Below, in pieces: positions 1,144-51,351 of a DNA stretch of 64,000 nucleotides (positions are counted from its first letter, which is position 1; each line of letters begins with the position of its first letter). Source of the stretch: Candidatus Iainarchaeum sp. GTDB taxonomy: Archaea; Iainarchaeota; Iainarchaeia; Iainarchaeales; DTGL01. The position numbers and the translations under genes are program-made. A model generated the notes under the pieces. It was not told the DNA's origin. It did no database searches and saw only the letters and a list, made by a program, of their open reading frames with translations. The stretch is from the NCBI GenBank assembly GCA_026413945.1, contig JAOAJX010000002.1, positions 4,618 to 68,617 of the forward strand. Reading direction: 5' to 3'.

Positions 1144-1170
1144 TTATTTTTTCTTTTTCTTTGCTGGCAA
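1144..1170 (-). CDS. candidate micropeptide MPAKKKKK (TTG start; alternative ATG at 1197 gives MEYFEKGGRLPAKKKKK)
   Basis: Minus strand reads AAGGGTGG-AAGA-TTG CCA GCA AAG AAA AAG AAA AAA TAA. TATA-like TTATTAAT at about 1217-1224; U-rich tract downstream (1096-1143). Confidence 0.45.
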   Translation of the reverse strand: MPAKKKKK

Positions 1171-9912: not shown

Positions 9913-10716
9913 CTAACCCAGGTTTTCTATACCACAAATTCCTTGTGCGCATTCTGTTATCATATTGTAGAAGCCTTGAATTGATGATCCGCCTTCTTTA
10001 ATATAGAGCCGACCTCCTTTTTCTTCGGCCTTGCAAGAAGCTACCAGTTCAAGCGCTTTCAATAGCGCTGGCCCGGAACAATTCCATATGTACTTTTCAT
10101 TTGAGAGCCTTATGAACCTTTCAAAGTCATCACTTATGCTAATCGCGCCTAATTTTTGTAGGTCTATTTGAAATTTCTTTGATAGCACAAAAAGATGCTT
10201 ACTTCCATTTATGTATAAGAATACACCAGCCCTAAGCTCTCTCTTATCGTTAAGGATTGCATTTCTAATAGCATTTTCTCCAGAAAATGTTGTTACCTTT
10301 ACTCCTTCTATGCACACAACCATAGAGTCCAAGACAGGCATTTTAAATATATTCTCTATTGAGCCACCATCTGTTGCAAAATTGTCCAAAATTATTATGT
10401 TTGGCTTAAATTCAGCTGTAAGTTCTTTGATCTTTGCAACGAACTCAGCATCACAATTTTCCTTAGAACCACCTTTTTTGCTTGTAAAAAGCTTTCTATC
10501 AAATGACCTATAGTATATGTTTTTCATATCGATTGTTTTTATGCCTGTGGCGCGCACGTTATCTGTAGCAGAGCCAACTATAGAAAATAATCCTTTCATT
10601 GCAGAATTTTTCTCTATCTCTGATATTACATACAATGATGACGATAAACTATTGCTGAAAAGCAAAAGCACCCTTGCTTGACCTGATGGCAATGCAACTC
10701 TTGGCTTGAAGAACAT
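9913..10716 (-). CDS. PurN/formyltransferase-fold protein, catalytically degenerate
   Basis: VLLLFS, SATDN..A.GI, FKPNIIIL, FSGENAIRNAI and WNCSGPALLKALELV align by eye to archaeal GAR transformylase-like proteins; NxH and DxGP motifs are absent. Confidence 0.65.
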   Translation of the reverse strand: MFFKPRVALPSGQARVLLLFSNSLSSSLYVISEIEKNSAMKGLFSIVGSATDNVRATGIKTIDMKNIYYRSFDRKLFTSKKGGSKENCDAEFVAKIKELTAEFKPNIIILDNFATDGGSIENIFKMPVLDSMVVCIEGVKVTTFSGENAIRNAILNDKRELRAGVFLYINGSKHLFVLSKKFQIDLQKLGAISISDDFERFIRLSNEKYIWNCSGPALLKALELVASCKAEEKGGRLYIKEGGSSIQGFYNMITECAQGICGIENLG

Positions 10717-10769
10717 ACGCAAATAATATGCACTACGGATATAAAAATTTTTTGTCTCAAGCAATTTCT

Positions 10770-11411
10770 ATGCTAAAAAATTTTTTTTCAAAGCCATTTT
10801 TTGAGATTTGGCTTGAGCAAGCCGATGGCGAAATTAAAGATTGGTTTCAAAAAGAAATTTGCTATCTGGAAGAGAATATAAAACCAAAAGCAAAAATTTT
10901 GGATGTTGGTTGTGGTTTTGGGAGACATATTGAAATATTGGCTAATTCCTCAAAAGAAGTCATTGGCGTTGACATCAACCCAGCTATGATCCAAAGAGCG
11001 AAAAAAACTATCGGCATCCAAAAACGTAAAGCTACTTGTAATGGATGCAAAGAAGCTGGATTTTAAGAATGACTATTTCGATTATGTGATTTGCATGGGT
11101 AATACTTTTGGTGTTTTTCCAAAAATAAAAAAGCGTGTTTTAAAAGAAATGGTTCGGGTATGTAAAAAAGCGGCAAAGTAATAATATCCGTTTATAATGA
11201 CAAGTCATTAGAGGTTAGGAAGAGATCTTACAAAAGAGTTGGCTTACATATAAATCGGATTAGAAAAGGTATTGTTTATACTAAAGAGGGTCTGATTTCT
11301 GAACATTTCTCAAAATTGCAGCTTAAAAGATTGTTTGACACACTAAAATTGAATAGCAAAATTATAGAGCTAAATGAAATTAGCTTCCTATGTGAATTAC
11401 AAAAGCGGTGA
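10770..11411 (+). pseudogene. class I SAM-dependent methyltransferase disrupted by two compensating frameshifts
   Basis: ILDVGCGFGRH, then one extra base at the A7 run (11001-11007), then KLLVMDAKKLDFKNDYFDYVICMGNTFG, then one missing base near 11170, then GKVIISVY... to TGA 11411 back in the original frame. Confidence 0.85.
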
Positions 11412-11490
11412 TTCAAAAATCACAAAAAACAAGAAATGATCGCATAGATAACATTTAAATACGCAAAAAACAAACTAAATATGAGCAGCC

Positions 11491-12135
11491 ATGGTGGAAA
11501 TGTTTTTTTTGAATAGTAAATTCTTATTAGCCATGTTTCTTCTTATTATTCTTTCTCTTTTTTCATTTGCTCTTTTTTGGCCTAAGTCTTTTTCATACAC
11601 CGACTGCGGTAATTGTGAGATGCTTGGAGTAAAGAAAAATATAGAGAGAATTGTTTCAATCCGCAAAAATTTTTTTGGCTACGAAATCAAAGTTATTGCA
11701 AACACTTGTTGTGGAATCAAGTTGGCACCTAAAACCCAGATCTCTAAGGGCATAATAAGACTCCATTTAAATGCACTTGGCAGTAACTGTCCTATGGGTT
11801 GTTTATGTGACAAAGAATTAAAAATCAACATTCCATCCAGCCAAGAGCTTAAGGTTATTGAGTTTTACATTGATGACATCCTTATAGACAAAAGAAGCGT
11901 TTACGGTGATAAACTGAGCAATGGAGAGGAGTTTTGCGAGCAAATTCCTAGTTACAAGGAAAGGTGCTATACTCGTGTGGCTTTCATAAAAAAAGATTTA
12001 AACTTATGCAACATCAGTGGTAATAAAGAGTGCTTTCTGGAGCTTCAAGAATACTTGCTTTTAAGCTGCCTTTCACAAAAAATAAAGAGTTGTAAAGAAA
12101 TATTCTCAGAAAATTATAAGCAAGAGACAATATAG
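11491..12135 (+). CDS. Cys-rich exported/membrane-anchored hypothetical protein
   Basis: N-terminal TM segment; many Cys; C..I......CY..VA motif. Confidence 0.65.
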   Translation: MVEMFFLNSKFLLAMFLLIILSLFSFALFWPKSFSYTDCGNCEMLGVKKNIERIVSIRKNFFGYEIKVIANTCCGIKLAPKTQISKGIIRLHLNALGSNCPMGCLCDKELKINIPSSQELKVIEFYIDDILIDKRSVYGDKLSNGEEFCEQIPSYKERCYTRVAFIKKDLNLCNISGNKECFLELQEYLLLSCLSQKIKSCKEIFSENYKQETI

Positions 12136-22622: not shown

Positions 22623-23306
22623 ATGCTTGGGGTGTTGGGGGGCACTGTTTTCCTAAAGAAAAACTTACTTGGTTTCTACTCAGAGAAAAAAATAAAGACA
22701 AGTTATGGAACAACTATTGTAAGAATTGGTGATGGTTTTGCATTTGTGCAGCGCCATGGAAAAGAAAATCTGCCGCCACACAAAACAAACCATTACGCTA
22801 ATATTCTTGCTTTTAAAAAATTAGGTATTAAGGAAATATTGGCCATCAACTCAGTGGGTAGCCTTAAACGCAGGATAAAGCCGGGTTCACTTGTTGTGCC
22901 TCATGATTATATTCAATTTTTTCCAAAGACTTATTTCAATGACCACATGTATTGCATAACTCCAGCGCTTTGTGAAGAAATGAGGGCTAAAATTTTAAGA
23001 GCATGTGATTTTCTTGGCTATCCTGTAATTTGCAAGGCAATCTATTTCCAAACAATAGGGCCGAGGCTTGAAACCGTTTCTGAAGTAAAATTCATAAGGC
23101 GCTTTGCCGATATTGTTGGGATGACGCTTGCAGATGAAGCAACGCTTGCTCAAGAACAAGGTTTGTGTTATGCTAGCATTTGCACAGTAGATAATTATGC
23201 TCATGGAATTTCAAAGTCATTGACATATGAAGAAATCGTAAGCAATGCGTCAAAGAATGTAGAAACTATAGCCAATATCATTTATGCGTTGGTGAGAACA
23301 AAATGA
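22623..23306 (+). CDS. mtnP: 5'-methylthioadenosine/inosine phosphorylase (MTAP family)
   Basis: RHG...PPHKTNHYANI, SVGSL, GPRLET..E, VGMT, VDNYAHG. Confidence 0.88.
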   Translation: MLGVLGGTVFLKKNLLGFYSEKKIKTSYGTTIVRIGDGFAFVQRHGKENLPPHKTNHYANILAFKKLGIKEILAINSVGSLKRRIKPGSLVVPHDYIQFFPKTYFNDHMYCITPALCEEMRAKILRACDFLGYPVICKAIYFQTIGPRLETVSEVKFIRRFADIVGMTLADEATLAQEQGLCYASICTVDNYAHGISKSLTYEEIVSNASKNVETIANIIYALVRTK

Positions 23307-24535
23307 CTATTTTTATCAAAGGGGCTTTGCTGCCAAATGGAAAGCGCTCAAACATACTAATTGAAGACAATAAGATCTCAGCAATGGGCAAGGGCGTGAT
23401 TGACAAAAGTGATGTTGTAATTGATGGTAAAGAGCTTGCTGCAATACCTGGATTCTTCAATATGCATACACACGCTGCAATGTCATTGCTAAAAGGTTTT
23501 GCCGATGATTTTGAGTTACACACTTGGCTAACAGAGTACATATTTCCAATTGAAGCGAAAATGAAGCCAAAGCATGTTTATTACGGCACAATGCTCGCTT
23601 GCGCAGAGATGATACGCTCTGGCACGACTTGTTTTAATGATATGTATTTCTTCGAAGAAGAAGGAGCCAAAGCCGCAAGCAAAGCTGGTTTGAGAGCAAT
23701 TATAAGCAAAGTTATTACAAATAAATTAAATGAAAGTGATGTGAAAAAGTCCATTAATGTGCTTGGCCGATATAAAAACATAATACCTGCGCTTGGACCT
23801 CATGCCATTTATACGACAACGGAAGATGTTTTACTTGGAGCAAAATCACTTTCAGAAGAGCTTTCTGTGCCAATACATTTTCACTTAAGCGAAACTCAAA
23901 AAGAAGTATCTGATTGCTTAAAAGAAAAGAACATGAGGCCTGTGGAATACCTTGCGCATATTGGCTTCTTGAACAAAAATCTTTTCAACGCACACTGCGT
24001 TTGGTTAAATGAAAAGGAAATAAAGTTGTTGGCTAAAAATTGTGCTAAAGCAATTAGTTGTCCAACCTCAAACTTAAAGCTTGCCAGCGGCATAGCACCA
24101 CTAAAGATGCTTCTGGACAACAAGGTTTTGCTGATGCTTGGCACAGATGGGTCAGCAAGCAACAATTCTTTAAACATGTTTGAAGCAATGAAGTTCGCAT
24201 CGTTATTGCAAAAGCACAAGCAGAACGATGCATCTGTGCTTAATGCCCAATGTACATTTAAGCTATCAAATATCAATGCAGCAGAGGCGCTAAACATTGA
24301 TTGTGGTAAATTATTTGTTGGATGCCTTGCAGATATCTCTCTTATTGATCTTAACCACATATCAATGGTGCCGTGCCACAATCTCCTATCAAATATAGTT
24401 TATTCTGCTGAACCAAATGCTGTTCATACAGTGATATGCGACGGTGAAATACTAATGGATGCAAGAGTAATTAGTTGGGAAGATAAGATTAAGAAAAAGG
24501 CATCTAAGGAGGCATTAAAGTTAGCGAAACATTAA
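23303..24535 (+). CDS. mtaD: MTA/SAH/adenosine deaminase (amidohydrolase)
   Basis: NMHTHAAM, HFHLSET, AHCV, LGTDGSASNN. Confidence 0.85.
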   Translation: MTIFIKGALLPNGKRSNILIEDNKISAMGKGVIDKSDVVIDGKELAAIPGFFNMHTHAAMSLLKGFADDFELHTWLTEYIFPIEAKMKPKHVYYGTMLACAEMIRSGTTCFNDMYFFEEEGAKAASKAGLRAIISKVITNKLNESDVKKSINVLGRYKNIIPALGPHAIYTTTEDVLLGAKSLSEELSVPIHFHLSETQKEVSDCLKEKNMRPVEYLAHIGFLNKNLFNAHCVWLNEKEIKLLAKNCAKAISCPTSNLKLASGIAPLKMLLDNKVLLMLGTDGSASNNSLNMFEAMKFASLLQKHKQNDASVLNAQCTFKLSNINAAEALNIDCGKLFVGCLADISLIDLNHISMVPCHNLLSNIVYSAEPNAVHTVICDGEILMDARVISWEDKIKKKASKEALKLAKH

Positions 24536-24572
24536 TGCTAAATCGGTAAGTATAATTGCAAGAGGTGATATT

Positions 24573-24614
24573 ATGGCTGGTTGCTGCGGAGCAAAAACCA
24601 AAAAAGGAAAGTAA
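24573..24614 (+). CDS. candidate micropeptide MAGCCGAKTKKGK
   Basis: GAGGTGA-TATT-ATG, with the 12-mer GGTGATATTATG identical to the histone RBS; T-rich tract follows the stop. Confidence 0.6.
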   Translation: MAGCCGAKTKKGK

Positions 24615-24651
24615 ATGTGCTTTTCCATAAATTTTCTTTTTTTCTTTATTT

Positions 24652-25287
24652 TTACTTCTTTAAAAGCTCTTTTCTTATCACTACTATTTCTGGAAGGCCG
24701 CGGTAATGTCCAGCATAATCTAAACCATAACCGCCTACAAACACGCGTGGTATTTGAAATCCAACGAAGTCAACTTGCACATCTTTTGCAATTCCTTTAT
24801 CAAGTAGCACGCATGTCTTAAACCTTTTTGCATTTTTGCCAATCATTTCTTGAAGAATTTTGAGTGTTTTACCAGTATCAACAATATCCTCTATAAGTAA
24901 TACGTTTTCACCCTGCAGTTCATCTATCTTATAGAGATCAACTTTGCCACTAGATTTTGAGCTGTTTCCGTAGCTGGAACATTTTATAAAATCAAGCTTT
25001 GTCCTAATATCACTTTGCTCATCGAGTGCTCTAATTAAATCTGCGGCAAAAAACATGCCTCCTTTAAGAATTACATAGCAGTCAAGTTCTTTAATTCTCT
25101 TAAATGTTGCACTTATTTCCAATGCAAGAGCCGTTATTCTTGCTTCAAGGCAACCTTTGGTTATGAGTATGCGATCGATTTCTTGTTCATATTTTTTCCT
25201 AACAACAGGCTCTGGCTCATTTTTTAGCTTTATGCCCTCTTCAGGCACAATTACTTTCCTTGAAAAGTTAGTTACTATTGTATGCAT
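24652..25287 (-). CDS. hpt: hypoxanthine phosphoribosyltransferase (bacterial-type)
   Basis: ILKGGMFFAADL, IKCSSY, LLIEDIVDTGKTL, FVGGYGLDY...YRGLP. Confidence 0.92.
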   Translation of the reverse strand: MHTIVTNFSRKVIVPEEGIKLKNEPEPVVRKKYEQEIDRILITKGCLEARITALALEISATFKRIKELDCYVILKGGMFFAADLIRALDEQSDIRTKLDFIKCSSYGNSSKSSGKVDLYKIDELQGENVLLIEDIVDTGKTLKILQEMIGKNAKRFKTCVLLDKGIAKDVQVDFVGFQIPRVFVGGYGLDYAGHYRGLPEIVVIRKELLKK

Positions 25288-26035
25288 CGAACCACCTTCT
25301 AAAAAATGTTGCTTTTTTTATTGCAATCTCATACTTTTCAGGCGTATCTGTTGGGAACCATTGGCCCACGCATTTGCAACCATAAAGACTTTGCTCGAAT
25401 GAAAGCACAGGAAAAACATCCCTTTCTAAGCTATAGCGTCTTTTTTTAGGTATCATTCTTAAAATCTTGTTGGATAATGCATATGCGCCCGCATTTACTA
25501 TTCTGCTTTCCGTTTCCCATGATTTTGGTTTTTCTATGAACCTAAGAACTTTATTACCTTCAAGCTCGACAACGCCAAAGTTTTCAATGTTTTTAAGTTT
25601 TTTTAGTGCAATAACGCCAAGTGCTTTTTTCTTTTCAAGCAAAAGTGCCATTTTGCTATAATTTACATCTTTTACTTCATCACCATTGCAAACAAAGAAG
25701 CTCTTGCCTTTTAAGTATTTTTCCGCATTTTTTAGAGCACCCGCAGTACCCAGGAGTTTTTCTTCTTTGCAATAGGTTATTCTTGCACCATCAAACTTTT
25801 TGCCAAAATAGTCATTTATTACTTCATTTTTGTGGCTAACGCCGAGGATGATTTGCTTTACGCCATGCTCTATAAGGTTCCTTATATTGTATTCGAGTAT
25901 AGGCCTGCCTTTCACAAGAAGCATTGGCTTTGGTATTTCGAGAGTGAATGGTCTTAGGCGCAATCCCATGCCGCCAGCAAGCACAAATGCTTTTCTTGTT
26001 TTTGTTTTTTCATTTATTGCATTTTCTTTTTTCAT
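25268..26035 (-). CDS. NDP-sugar pyrophosphorylase (nucleotidyltransferase)
   Basis: LAGGMGLRLRP...PKPM, LGTAGAL, NGD, FIEKP, NAGAY. Confidence 0.9.
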   Translation of the reverse strand: MKKENAINEKTKTRKAFVLAGGMGLRLRPFTLEIPKPMLLVKGRPILEYNIRNLIEHGVKQIILGVSHKNEVINDYFGKKFDGARITYCKEEKLLGTAGALKNAEKYLKGKSFFVCNGDEVKDVNYSKMALLLEKKKALGVIALKKLKNIENFGVVELEGNKVLRFIEKPKSWETESRIVNAGAYALSNKILRMIPKKRRYSLERDVFPVLSFEQSLYGCKCVGQWFPTDTPEKYEIAIKKATFFRRWFDAYNSN

Positions 26036-51318: not shown

Positions 51319-51351
51319 TTACTTCTTCTTTGCCTTCTTCTTTGCCGCCAC
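51319..51351 (-). CDS. candidate micropeptide MAAKKKAKKK
   Basis: GGGGGTGA-AGTG-GTG GCG GCA AAG AAG AAG GCA AAG AAG AAG TAA; BRE/TATA AAAACAA-TTAAATA at 51401-51414; T-rich tract downstream. Confidence 0.6.
   Translation of the reverse strand: MAAKKKAKKK

Follow-up and report, generated by a model that had tools for sequence, protein, structure and literature searches.

A conserved 13-codon reading frame behind a purine-salvage operon of Iainarchaeum: a likely micro-gene with a cysteine head, a lysine tail and a candidate role in metal binding

Two described systems may serve as comparisons for the element considered here. The disordered N-terminus of HypB, with the motif CxxCGC, has picomolar affinity for Ni(II), which it ligates with the N-terminal amine and the thiolates of Cys2, Cys5 and Cys7 (PMC12284835). 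The leaderless polycysteine open reading frames (ORFs) of mycobacteria, of the Ms5788A type, precede cysteine-metabolism operons as cysteine-responsive attenuators, in which ribosome stalling unmasks the ribosome-binding site (RBS) of the next gene (bioRxiv 10.1101/834739). Here, we describe a 13-codon ORF that lies in a 64,000-nucleotide (nt) stretch of DNA from Candidatus Iainarchaeum sp. (assembly GCA_026413945.1, contig JAOAJX010000002.1, positions 4,618 to 68,617), referred to below as the window; positions without another designation are those of the window. To our knowledge, gene finders never call genes of 13 codons, the micro-proteins of DPANN archaea are almost undescribed, and no DPANN archaeon has yet been grown alone.

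The micro-ORF occupies positions 24573-24614 of the forward strand and reads ATG GCT GGT TGC TGC GGA GCA AAA ACC AAA AAA GGA AAG TAA, encoding the peptide MAGCCGAKTKKGK. The original prediction had described this ORF together with a Shine-Dalgarno (SD) sequence, a 12-mer common to the histone gene of the window and a T-rich tract, and all of these are present in the sequence. The window contains the 12-mer, GGTGATATTATG, at exactly two places, at 24564-24575 and at the start of the histone gene; at one mismatch or fewer it has four window sites, where 0.22 would be expected.

Relatives were compared using one genome per species, comprising 196 genomes of the order and 215 of the phylum (G, C, L, f and g numbers are our handles for genomes, contigs, loci, families and genera). 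Orthologs were collected by a DNA search of relatives and from contigs that encode close homologs of the hypoxanthine phosphoribosyltransferase (HPRT) gene, which converges on the micro-ORF from the opposite strand. At the same site, between the amidohydrolase (deaminase-like) gene and HPRT, the micro-ORF is found in five of the genus's seven GTDB species, and seven more lineages from metagenomes or assemblies have it as well. Copies encoding MAGCCGAKTKKGK recur across the genus with an ATG or GTG start and 5-6 synonymous changes; in G002, for example, the frame reads GTG GCA GGT TGC TGC GGA GCA AAG ACC AAG AAA GGC AAA TAA, with a peptide identical to that of the window after five synonymous third-position changes and an ATG-to-GTG change of the start. 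The ortholog of G004 is MAGCCGSKTKKGK, and those of G005 and G001 are xACCCGGKKGKKKK. The contigs with HPRT homologs contributed MAGGCGNKTKKGK, MAGGCGDKTKKGK, MPCCGGTKKGSKK, (CTG)PCCGGGKKGKKK, (ATA)PYCGDKKGKKRK and, with ATG, MACCCGGKKGKKKK. Further forms are MAGG CG[ND]KTKKGK, xPCCGGGKKGKKK and xPYCGDKKGKKRK, and a single-Cys ortholog is written as AGGCGNKTKKGK. A degenerate pattern of the peptide core matched 5 of the 196 order genomes, all of them in this genus, and its reversed control matched none. Over GTDB genomes and JGI metagenomes, a strict peptide pattern found Iainarchaeum only, besides about 70 chance or unrelated matches, and a looser pattern with two mismatches yielded only chance matches within the family. 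One 28-nt match, in G026 (L008), was rejected as chance; it sits inside a gene.

The way in which these copies differ from one another is that of a coding sequence. All have 13-14 codons, differ in length only in frame, and contain no frameshift and no internal stop. Among the six copies of the same length (codons 2-13), 14 columns are variable, and these are distributed 2, 1 and 11 over codon positions 1, 2 and 3. In the ORF frame, synonymous divergence (pS) is 0.5-1.0 and non-synonymous divergence (pN) is 0-0.125, for a pN/pS of 0-0.13, while the two other frames are inverted, with pS of about 0-0.2 and pN of 0.13-0.34. When an equal number of substitutions is placed at random, as few amino-acid changes are obtained with P=4e-4 for G002, 0.014 for G004 and 0.0014 for L103. 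Throughout the genus, residue 2 is small, one Cys stands directly before a Gly, the Lys-rich tail includes one Gly or Ser, and the stop keeps its position. The SD at -9/-10 is likewise kept in the genus orthologs (GAGGTGAT, TAGGTGAT, GGGGGG, GTGGTGAT), and each ortholog has a T5-T7 run 10-35 nt past the stop. The non-coding spacer that flanks the micro-ORF diverges faster than the ORF and is in part unalignable. Thus the ORF is conserved in close relatives with a coding-type pattern of substitution, the point on which the original prediction had staked its micropeptide, and a real micropeptide is supported. Judged from these comparisons, the micro-ORF is very likely a gene under selection for its peptide.

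Could the frame nevertheless be a chance ORF within a conserved non-coding stretch, such as a shared terminator region, or a young ORF that drifts neutrally? About 12 short ORFs with the arrangement GGTGA-N4-ATG are both expected and observed per genome, the Lys codons of G000 read as T runs behind HPRT on the minus strand, and the start codon has been lost in three lineages and the entire element in two species. Set against these points are the third-position periodicity and the exclusively in-frame indels across about ten distinct variants, the much faster divergence of the flanking spacer, and the recurrence of the same build at other loci (see below). The particular proposal that the Lys codons provide a minus-strand oligo-T terminator for HPRT was rejected: in G002 the codons are AAG, no A/T run is present there, and yet the peptide is kept. 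We therefore regard an absence of function as very unlikely.

The original prediction had also stressed a Cys-Cys pair with a Lys-rich tail. The tail and a Cys-Gly are indeed found genus-wide, but the emphasis on the pair is weakened by three lineages of the genus that have a single Cys (MAGGCGNKTKKGK, MAGGCGDKTKKGK, ..PYCGDKKGKKRK), and a vicinal disulfide or dithiol is for the same reason disfavoured as an essential feature. This bears on the proposal that Gly-Cys-Cys-Gly acts as a small thiol redox shuttle. Large thioredoxin reductases carry a C-terminal GCUG/GCCG redox centre, the window peptide contains A-G-C-C-G-A, most members of the wider family described below have adjacent cysteines, and one of them adjoins a gene for a membrane thioredoxin-like protein. 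Yet Gly-Cys or Tyr-Cys replaces Cys-Cys in the three lineages with the remainder of the peptide kept, and other family members have CxC or CxxC spacing. A redox peptide is the least likely of the readings considered here.

When did the gene arise? The convergent arrangement of the deaminase and HPRT genes is maintained throughout the family. Where the micro-ORF is absent (G003, G006, G007-G010, G012 and one assembly contig) the spacer between them measures 0-38 nt, and where it is present 93-331 nt; sister genera have a spacer of 0-11 nt, compared to one of about 100 nt that includes the gene at the genus root. In a tree of both flanking proteins, the genus falls into the clades (G000, G002, G004) and (G005/G001, L049, G003, G006). 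The micro-ORF is found in both, and was therefore present at the genus root and afterwards deleted in G003 and G006. Taken with the near-empty spacers of the sister genera, this places the birth of the micro-gene very probably at that root. Two of the spacers are unusual in other ways. The largest, 331 nt in a Logan contig of SRR14702244 (L102), has about 250 nt of extra sequence 5' of MPCCGGTKKGSKK, and in a sister genus (L093, G011:C78) the usually empty spacer has received a 752-nt insertion with an ORF of about 240 amino acids inside.

Table 1. The micro-ORF and its surroundings in the window, and micro-ORFs of the same build in other genomes.
Feature	Position	Strand	Family	Basis or remark
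Micro-gene, 13 codons + TAA, product MAGCCGAKTKKGK	24573..24614	+		sequence, ortholog alignment
Shine-Dalgarno GAGGTGAT, 8 nt	24562..24569	+		ends 3 nt 5' of ATG; GGTG begins at -9
PNP_UDP_1, purine-nucleoside / 5'-methylthioadenosine (MTA) phosphorylase-like, operon gene 1	22623..23306	+		Pfam PF01048, E 3.8e-33
Amidohydro_1 amidohydrolase (MTA/adenosine deaminase-like), operon gene 2	23303..24535	+		Pfam PF01979, E 3.6e-63
HPRT, convergent	24652..25287	-		Pfam PF00156; marks the syntenic position
T-rich tract, runs T4, T4, T7, T3, T5, reaching the HPRT 3' end	24621-24653	+		likely archaeal oligo-T terminator
Archaeal histone, 66 amino acids	12151-12351	-		PF00808, E 1e-15
G008 / G011: MPCCCGGSSTKKKTKKK / MPCCCGETTKKKPKKKTTKKKKK			f1 (genus g3), the window's own	common TATA-like box, conserved terminator hairpin
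G048 / G049: MPCCCCGGVKKKPKAKKGKKKK / MPCCCCGEVKKKPKAKKGKKKKK			f5	8 synonymous, 1 non-synonymous change, one extra in-frame codon; common promoter-like box
G049: MGCCGTKTKPKK			f5	second micro-ORF of that genome
G098 / G100: MGCGCCCESDKKKKKK / MGCSCCGSEKKAKKKK			f21	syntenic; immediately behind a gene
G083: MGCCGSKSKKKKK			f21	
G102: MSCGCCGGKKKKK			f21	
G081: MCGSCGCGSKKKKK			f21	
G092: MCGSCGCKDKPKKKKK			f21	
G057: MPCGCGTTKKKKKKKK			f2	
G176: MADCCCCGPKKATKKTAKTKSKKK			f25	

The SD by itself would not make a gene of this frame. Its GGTG, 9 nt before the start, stands at the modal spacing ahead of long ORFs in this 0.95-Mb, 21-contig genome (the window is on its contig C14), in which GGTGA-N4-ATG occurs 85 times, 69 times at the start of ORFs of at least 60 amino acids and 12 times at the start of ORFs of at most 40. 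Neighbouring off-spacings yield 4-27 short ORFs, a range that includes the 12, so that the combination of SD, ATG and short ORF alone is not beyond chance. The case for a gene rests on conservation, not on the SD. The genome has 3295 ORFs of 5-40 codons between its genes, of which 67 come with an SD-like 5-mer and only a handful with both ATG and a full-strength SD. The Lys-rich intergenic micro-ORFs of the genome that are led by an SD are only the one at 24573 and two others, (GTG)MAAKKKAKKK at 51319-51351 (-) and (TTG)MPAKKKKK at 1144-1170 (-). The micro-ORF had been called the Cys variant of this Lys-rich set, a description that holds for composition; homology to MAAKKKAKKK or MPAKKKKK was not shown. 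Outside the window there are also three SD-led intergenic ORFs of 30-38 codons, at C11:83279-83395 (+), C15:139574-139678 (+) and C15:24520-24612 (+), each of which encodes a single hydrophobic helix (e.g. MSMDEEKLKTLKGIYLNTIAILVLNSIMVGVMLAKLIL) and is likely an unannotated small membrane protein.

The surroundings of the micro-ORF are those of a last cistron. The phosphorylase and deaminase-like genes overlap by 4 nt, 37 nt separate the deaminase stop from the micro-ORF, and another 37 nt separate the micro-ORF from the HPRT stop. What follows on the same strand is the T-tract, and then HPRT in antisense. Between the deaminase stop and the micro-ORF there is no T run of five or more, and the gap is only 11 nt in G004; the simplest explanation, on both counts, is that the micro-ORF is co-transcribed with the deaminase operon. 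A TATA-like box, GTATAAT, 17-22 nt 5' of the ATG was rejected as a promoter, being too near for an SD-containing transcript and being deaminase coding sequence in G004. Read-through or frameshift extension of the deaminase was ruled out by three in-frame stops and by the different frame of the micro-ORF, which is free-standing: it stops after 13 codons and has no G3E GTPase domain. A search of the region against Rfam gave no family, and a scan for promoters and bacterial-type hairpin terminators found none. RNA folding of both strands was no better than that of shuffled sequence (z -0.69 on + and +0.29 on -), and a small hairpin in G000 is absent from G004.

The same build recurs well beyond this locus. 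Two sequence-only covariance models were made, R1 from the genus copies and R2 from 13 diverse copies. Both were run on the order genomes and R2 also on those of the phylum, with strict filters beyond 40 genomes. At E <= 5e-5 the models find about 18 of the 215 genomes, a lower bound that includes several genomes used in training. Outside the genus of the window, SD-led micro-ORFs of the same build occur at unrelated loci; at least 12 genomes have them, from 9 genera in 5 families (Table 1), and three genus-level orthologous pairs are included (G008/G011, G048/G049 and G098/G100). With the family of the window counted in, at least six families of the order have such peptides. The members in genera g3 and g34 are monocistronic, each with a promoter-like box and a terminator of its own. 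The g3 pair (L176/L185, at G008:C17:11406-11478 and G011:C22:1531-1595), encoding MPCCCGG... and MPCCCGE..., shares the TATA-like box ATAGCTTTTTAAA. Its hairpin, ATGCCAAAC...GTTTGGCAT, is conserved as well and leads into a T8 run, and the whole resembles a complete small transcription unit. Pooled over the family, Lys makes up 41% of the residues, Cys 18% and Gly 17%; hydrophobic residues are absent, and the net charge is +3 to +10. Each peptide has 1-4 cysteines, and most keep 2-4 of them clustered near the N-terminus with glycines. Residue 2 is A, P, G, S or C in every member. Methionine aminopeptidase removes Met1 when residue 2 is small, and since residue 2 is always small, removal of Met1 is predicted (mature window peptide AGCCGAKTKKGK).

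We propose to define the class as SD-led ORFs of 12-24 codons with a small residue 2, 1-4 Cys among Gly in the first 8 residues, a tail of at least 50% Lys and no hydrophobic residues. The window ORF and 17 further distinct peptides have all of these features. The motif M[AG]xCC[GS], suggested earlier as a search pattern, is too narrow for the family recovered. A loose MxCCGxK pattern gave 16 matches, compared to 3 in the control; the only two with an SD are Lys-tailed micro-ORFs, and the others are intragenic. The full anatomy is thus unlike chance matches, which come without SD and Lys tail. From this pattern of features, the window gene belongs to an undescribed class of micro-genes with a Cys head and a Lys tail in the Iainarchaeales. 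Longer small proteins that open with the same head, MGCCCGHEETKKEHCGKEMEKKENKYVCSECGF... and MDDCCSEKNKKKEKIELKTDCCGACVV..., are encoded at L183 (G053:C11:76220-76276) and L195 (G016:C3:21697-21757), which suggests that the Cys/Gly head is used as an N-terminal module too. A bacterial protein of about 75 amino acids (L070, Lentisphaeria metagenome-assembled genome, JAQWBY010000083.1, 4048-4086) ends in ...NVGCCGSKASAGCCGAKASKKK, a tail of repeated GCCG[SA]K with a basic end, like an archaeal micropeptide fused onto a larger domain. At three of the f21 loci (L175/L182/L187 in G098, G100 and G081), the micro-ORF adjoins a gene for a protein of about 127-133 amino acids that has no Pfam match and, by eye, is like the beta-barrel domain 2 of translation GTPases.

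Do these frames act through their peptides, or through the ribosomes that translate them? If ribosomes paused at the Cys or Lys codons according to the supply of Cys- or Lys-tRNA, termination or read-through at the T-tract might be altered, and with it antisense transcription into HPRT. The mycobacterial attenuators provide a precedent for regulation by short polycysteine ORFs, the window ORF ends 7-40 nt ahead of the T runs, and the member in G083 overlaps the start of the next gene. The window ORF, in contrast, has no same-strand gene downstream and is led by an SD rather than leaderless, no alternative RNA pairing was found in the folds of either strand, and Ala, Gly and Thr are conserved at the amino-acid level besides Cys and Lys. 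Moreover, the g3 and g34 members stand alone as transcription units. A regulatory short ORF is accordingly an unlikely explanation.

The favoured hypothesis for the activity of the peptide is metal binding, already suggested in the original prediction, which leads by analogy with the HypB motif in sister members and with ArsP-like and PadR-TRASH neighbours. The members in G081 and G092 begin MCGSCGC, which has the spacing C2-x-x-C5-G-C7 of HypB, the nickel hook that has been studied best. The micro-ORFs of G083 and G057, from two different families, adjoin orthologous permeases of a rare ArsP_1-like type, which score about 131 bits with PF03773 and have CPxC at the N-terminus (L120/L227 at G083:C7 ~24338-25464 and L125 at G057:C62 ~10616-11588). 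At L124 (G049:C12:1-1713), MGCCGTKTKPKK follows a 306-residue membrane protein with a CCLHH motif, and the divergent regulator alongside belongs to the PadR family and has a metal-sensing TRASH domain at its C-terminus. In G048 the micro-ORF follows the membrane thioredoxin-like gene mentioned above. We hold tentatively, and at somewhat less than an even chance, that the product is a micropeptide in which an N-terminal thiolate head binds a metal or metalloid and is joined to a lysine tail.

How might such a peptide come to be made and used? The gene would have arisen in, or been inserted into, the near-empty spacer between the convergent genes at the root of the genus, and would since have been under purifying selection on its peptide, while being dispensable enough to be deleted in two species. 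As the last cistron of the phosphorylase-deaminase operon, the frame would be translated from its own strong SD, and transcription would end at the oligo-T tract behind it. After removal of Met1 the product would have about 12 residues, none of them hydrophobic, arranged as a head and an oligolysine tail. The head, a free alpha-amine and 1-3 cysteines among glycines, might serve as a small hook of thiolate (plus amine or amide nitrogen) for a soft metal or metalloid (Ni, Co, Cu(I), Zn, Cd or As(III)). Each ion would be bound by one or a few peptides, which might buffer it, pass it on or detoxify it. The Lys tail could solubilise the anionic metal-thiolate complex, or tether it to polyanions such as membrane or nucleic acid.

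Several observations weigh against this account. The neighbours of the gene in the window serve purine/MTA salvage and have no metal link, no ArsP_1 was found in G000, and the window motif A-G-C-C-G differs from that of HypB. Three lineages make do with one Cys, so the coordination sphere of a metal cannot be filled by a single peptide. A general link with ArsP was rejected, since the micro-ORF is missing from more than 30 further ArsP loci; what is left is two adjacencies, both to one rare subfamily. In one of these, in G083, the micro-ORF overlaps the first in-frame ATG of the permease in another frame, and may be an upstream ORF; the SD there suits the micro-ORF better than the permease start. 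The members outside the genus may owe their likeness to convergence instead of common descent: they score 22-41 bits with the sequence models, yet their short peptides have low complexity and their loci are unrelated. Finally, the gene is dispensable, having been lost in G003 and G006, and in three lineages of the genus the position of the start codon is occupied by ACA, CTG or ATA with the rest intact. These starts are either a first step of decay or tolerated near-cognate initiation, and translation there is doubtful or non-canonical.

If the head does not bind metal, the tail may be what matters. As an electrostatic polycation, the peptide could bind nucleic acid, the ribosome or acidic membrane through its lysines, in the manner of eL41-type peptides or of MAAKKKAKKK, with Cys used only to dimerise through a disulfide or to attach covalently to a lipid or another molecule. 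A single invariant Cys with a Lys tail is all that the genus conserves, the window holds two other SD-led Lys-rich micro-ORFs, and the whole family is strongly positive in net charge. On the other hand, the 2-4 clustered cysteines with Gly that most members keep near the N-terminus exceed the needs of dimerisation, the cytoplasm of anaerobes is reducing, and Cys-less oligolysine genes are already present in this genome. No acyl-transferase was matched either; the search, with PF01529 (DHHC), gave no match in G000 and none in control genomes, and is uninformative for that reason. Lipidation, one of the options in the original prediction, is thus left unsupported. The polycation is a doubtful alternative to metal binding.

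Why should a conserved micropeptide of this design matter? It is among the shortest frames with a clear coding signature from comparative data alone, and its birth can be placed on the tree, from spacers of 0-11 nt in the sister genera to one of about 100 nt at the genus root. As metal binders, these peptides would rank as the smallest gene-encoded ligands known for metals, and as cheap ones for organisms with genomes of about 1 Mb; if they bind none, the conserved design of Cys plus oligolysine still demands explanation. A broader and rather improbable extension of the metal-binding hypothesis is that the Met-processed thiol peptides of the Iainarchaeales buffer soft metals and supply the low-molecular-weight thiol of the cell, with a product of the ribosome taking the place of glutathione or phytochelatin and new members arising recurrently de novo in empty spacers. 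Such a system would belong to genome-reduced archaea that are unable to make glutathione or phytochelatin, and the window ORF would be a dated example of its birth.

Among known systems, eukaryotic membrane anchors share the order Met, small residue, Cys-Cys and basic stretch. The N-terminus of GAP-43 (MLCCMRRTKQ), the MGC... of the Src family and the tail of K-Ras4B are Cys/polybasic anchors on large proteins, and MGCCGSKSKKKKK resembles a dual-acylation signal. These are, however, targeting signals of large proteins, which require N-myristoyl and DHHC palmitoyl transferases, and we know of neither enzyme in archaea. The ribosomal protein eL41 and the peptide MAAKKKAKKK are equally tiny (10-25 residues) and extremely basic, but have no Cys head, and eL41 is Arg-rich and helical within the ribosome. 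With the mycobacterial polycysteine ORFs the micro-ORF has in common that it is very short, contains consecutive Cys codons, was unannotated and is conserved in its lineage. It differs in being SD-led, in standing last in an operon, with nothing downstream, and in conserving residues other than Cys; it has neither the leaderless start, nor the downstream cysteine-metabolism gene, nor the RBS-sequestering duplex of the attenuators.

Metallothioneins, small metal sponges of bacteria such as SmtA/BmtA, and phytochelatins are rich in Cys, free of aromatic residues and often Lys-containing, and they coordinate soft metals through the thiolates of their CC, CxC and CxxC motifs. Of the 13 residues of the window peptide, 2 are Cys (15%), which form a CC motif, and aromatics are absent; the family pool contains a similar share of Cys, and one ortholog has a Tyr. 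Metallothioneins have 7-20 Cys and form clusters within one chain, whereas the micro-peptides, with 1-4 Cys in 12-24 residues, would need several chains per site; there is no detectable sequence relationship between the two. From HypB the micro-genes differ in standing alone, in their Lys tail and in having no GTPase domain, and no link to hydrogenase maturation was seen; the window peptide begins M-A-G-C-C-G-A rather than with CxxCGC, a motif confined to the distant members in G081 and G092. What they share with HypB is a short, disordered, Gly-containing cluster of cysteines placed right at the N-terminus, as in the MCTTCGCG... of Escherichia coli HypB.

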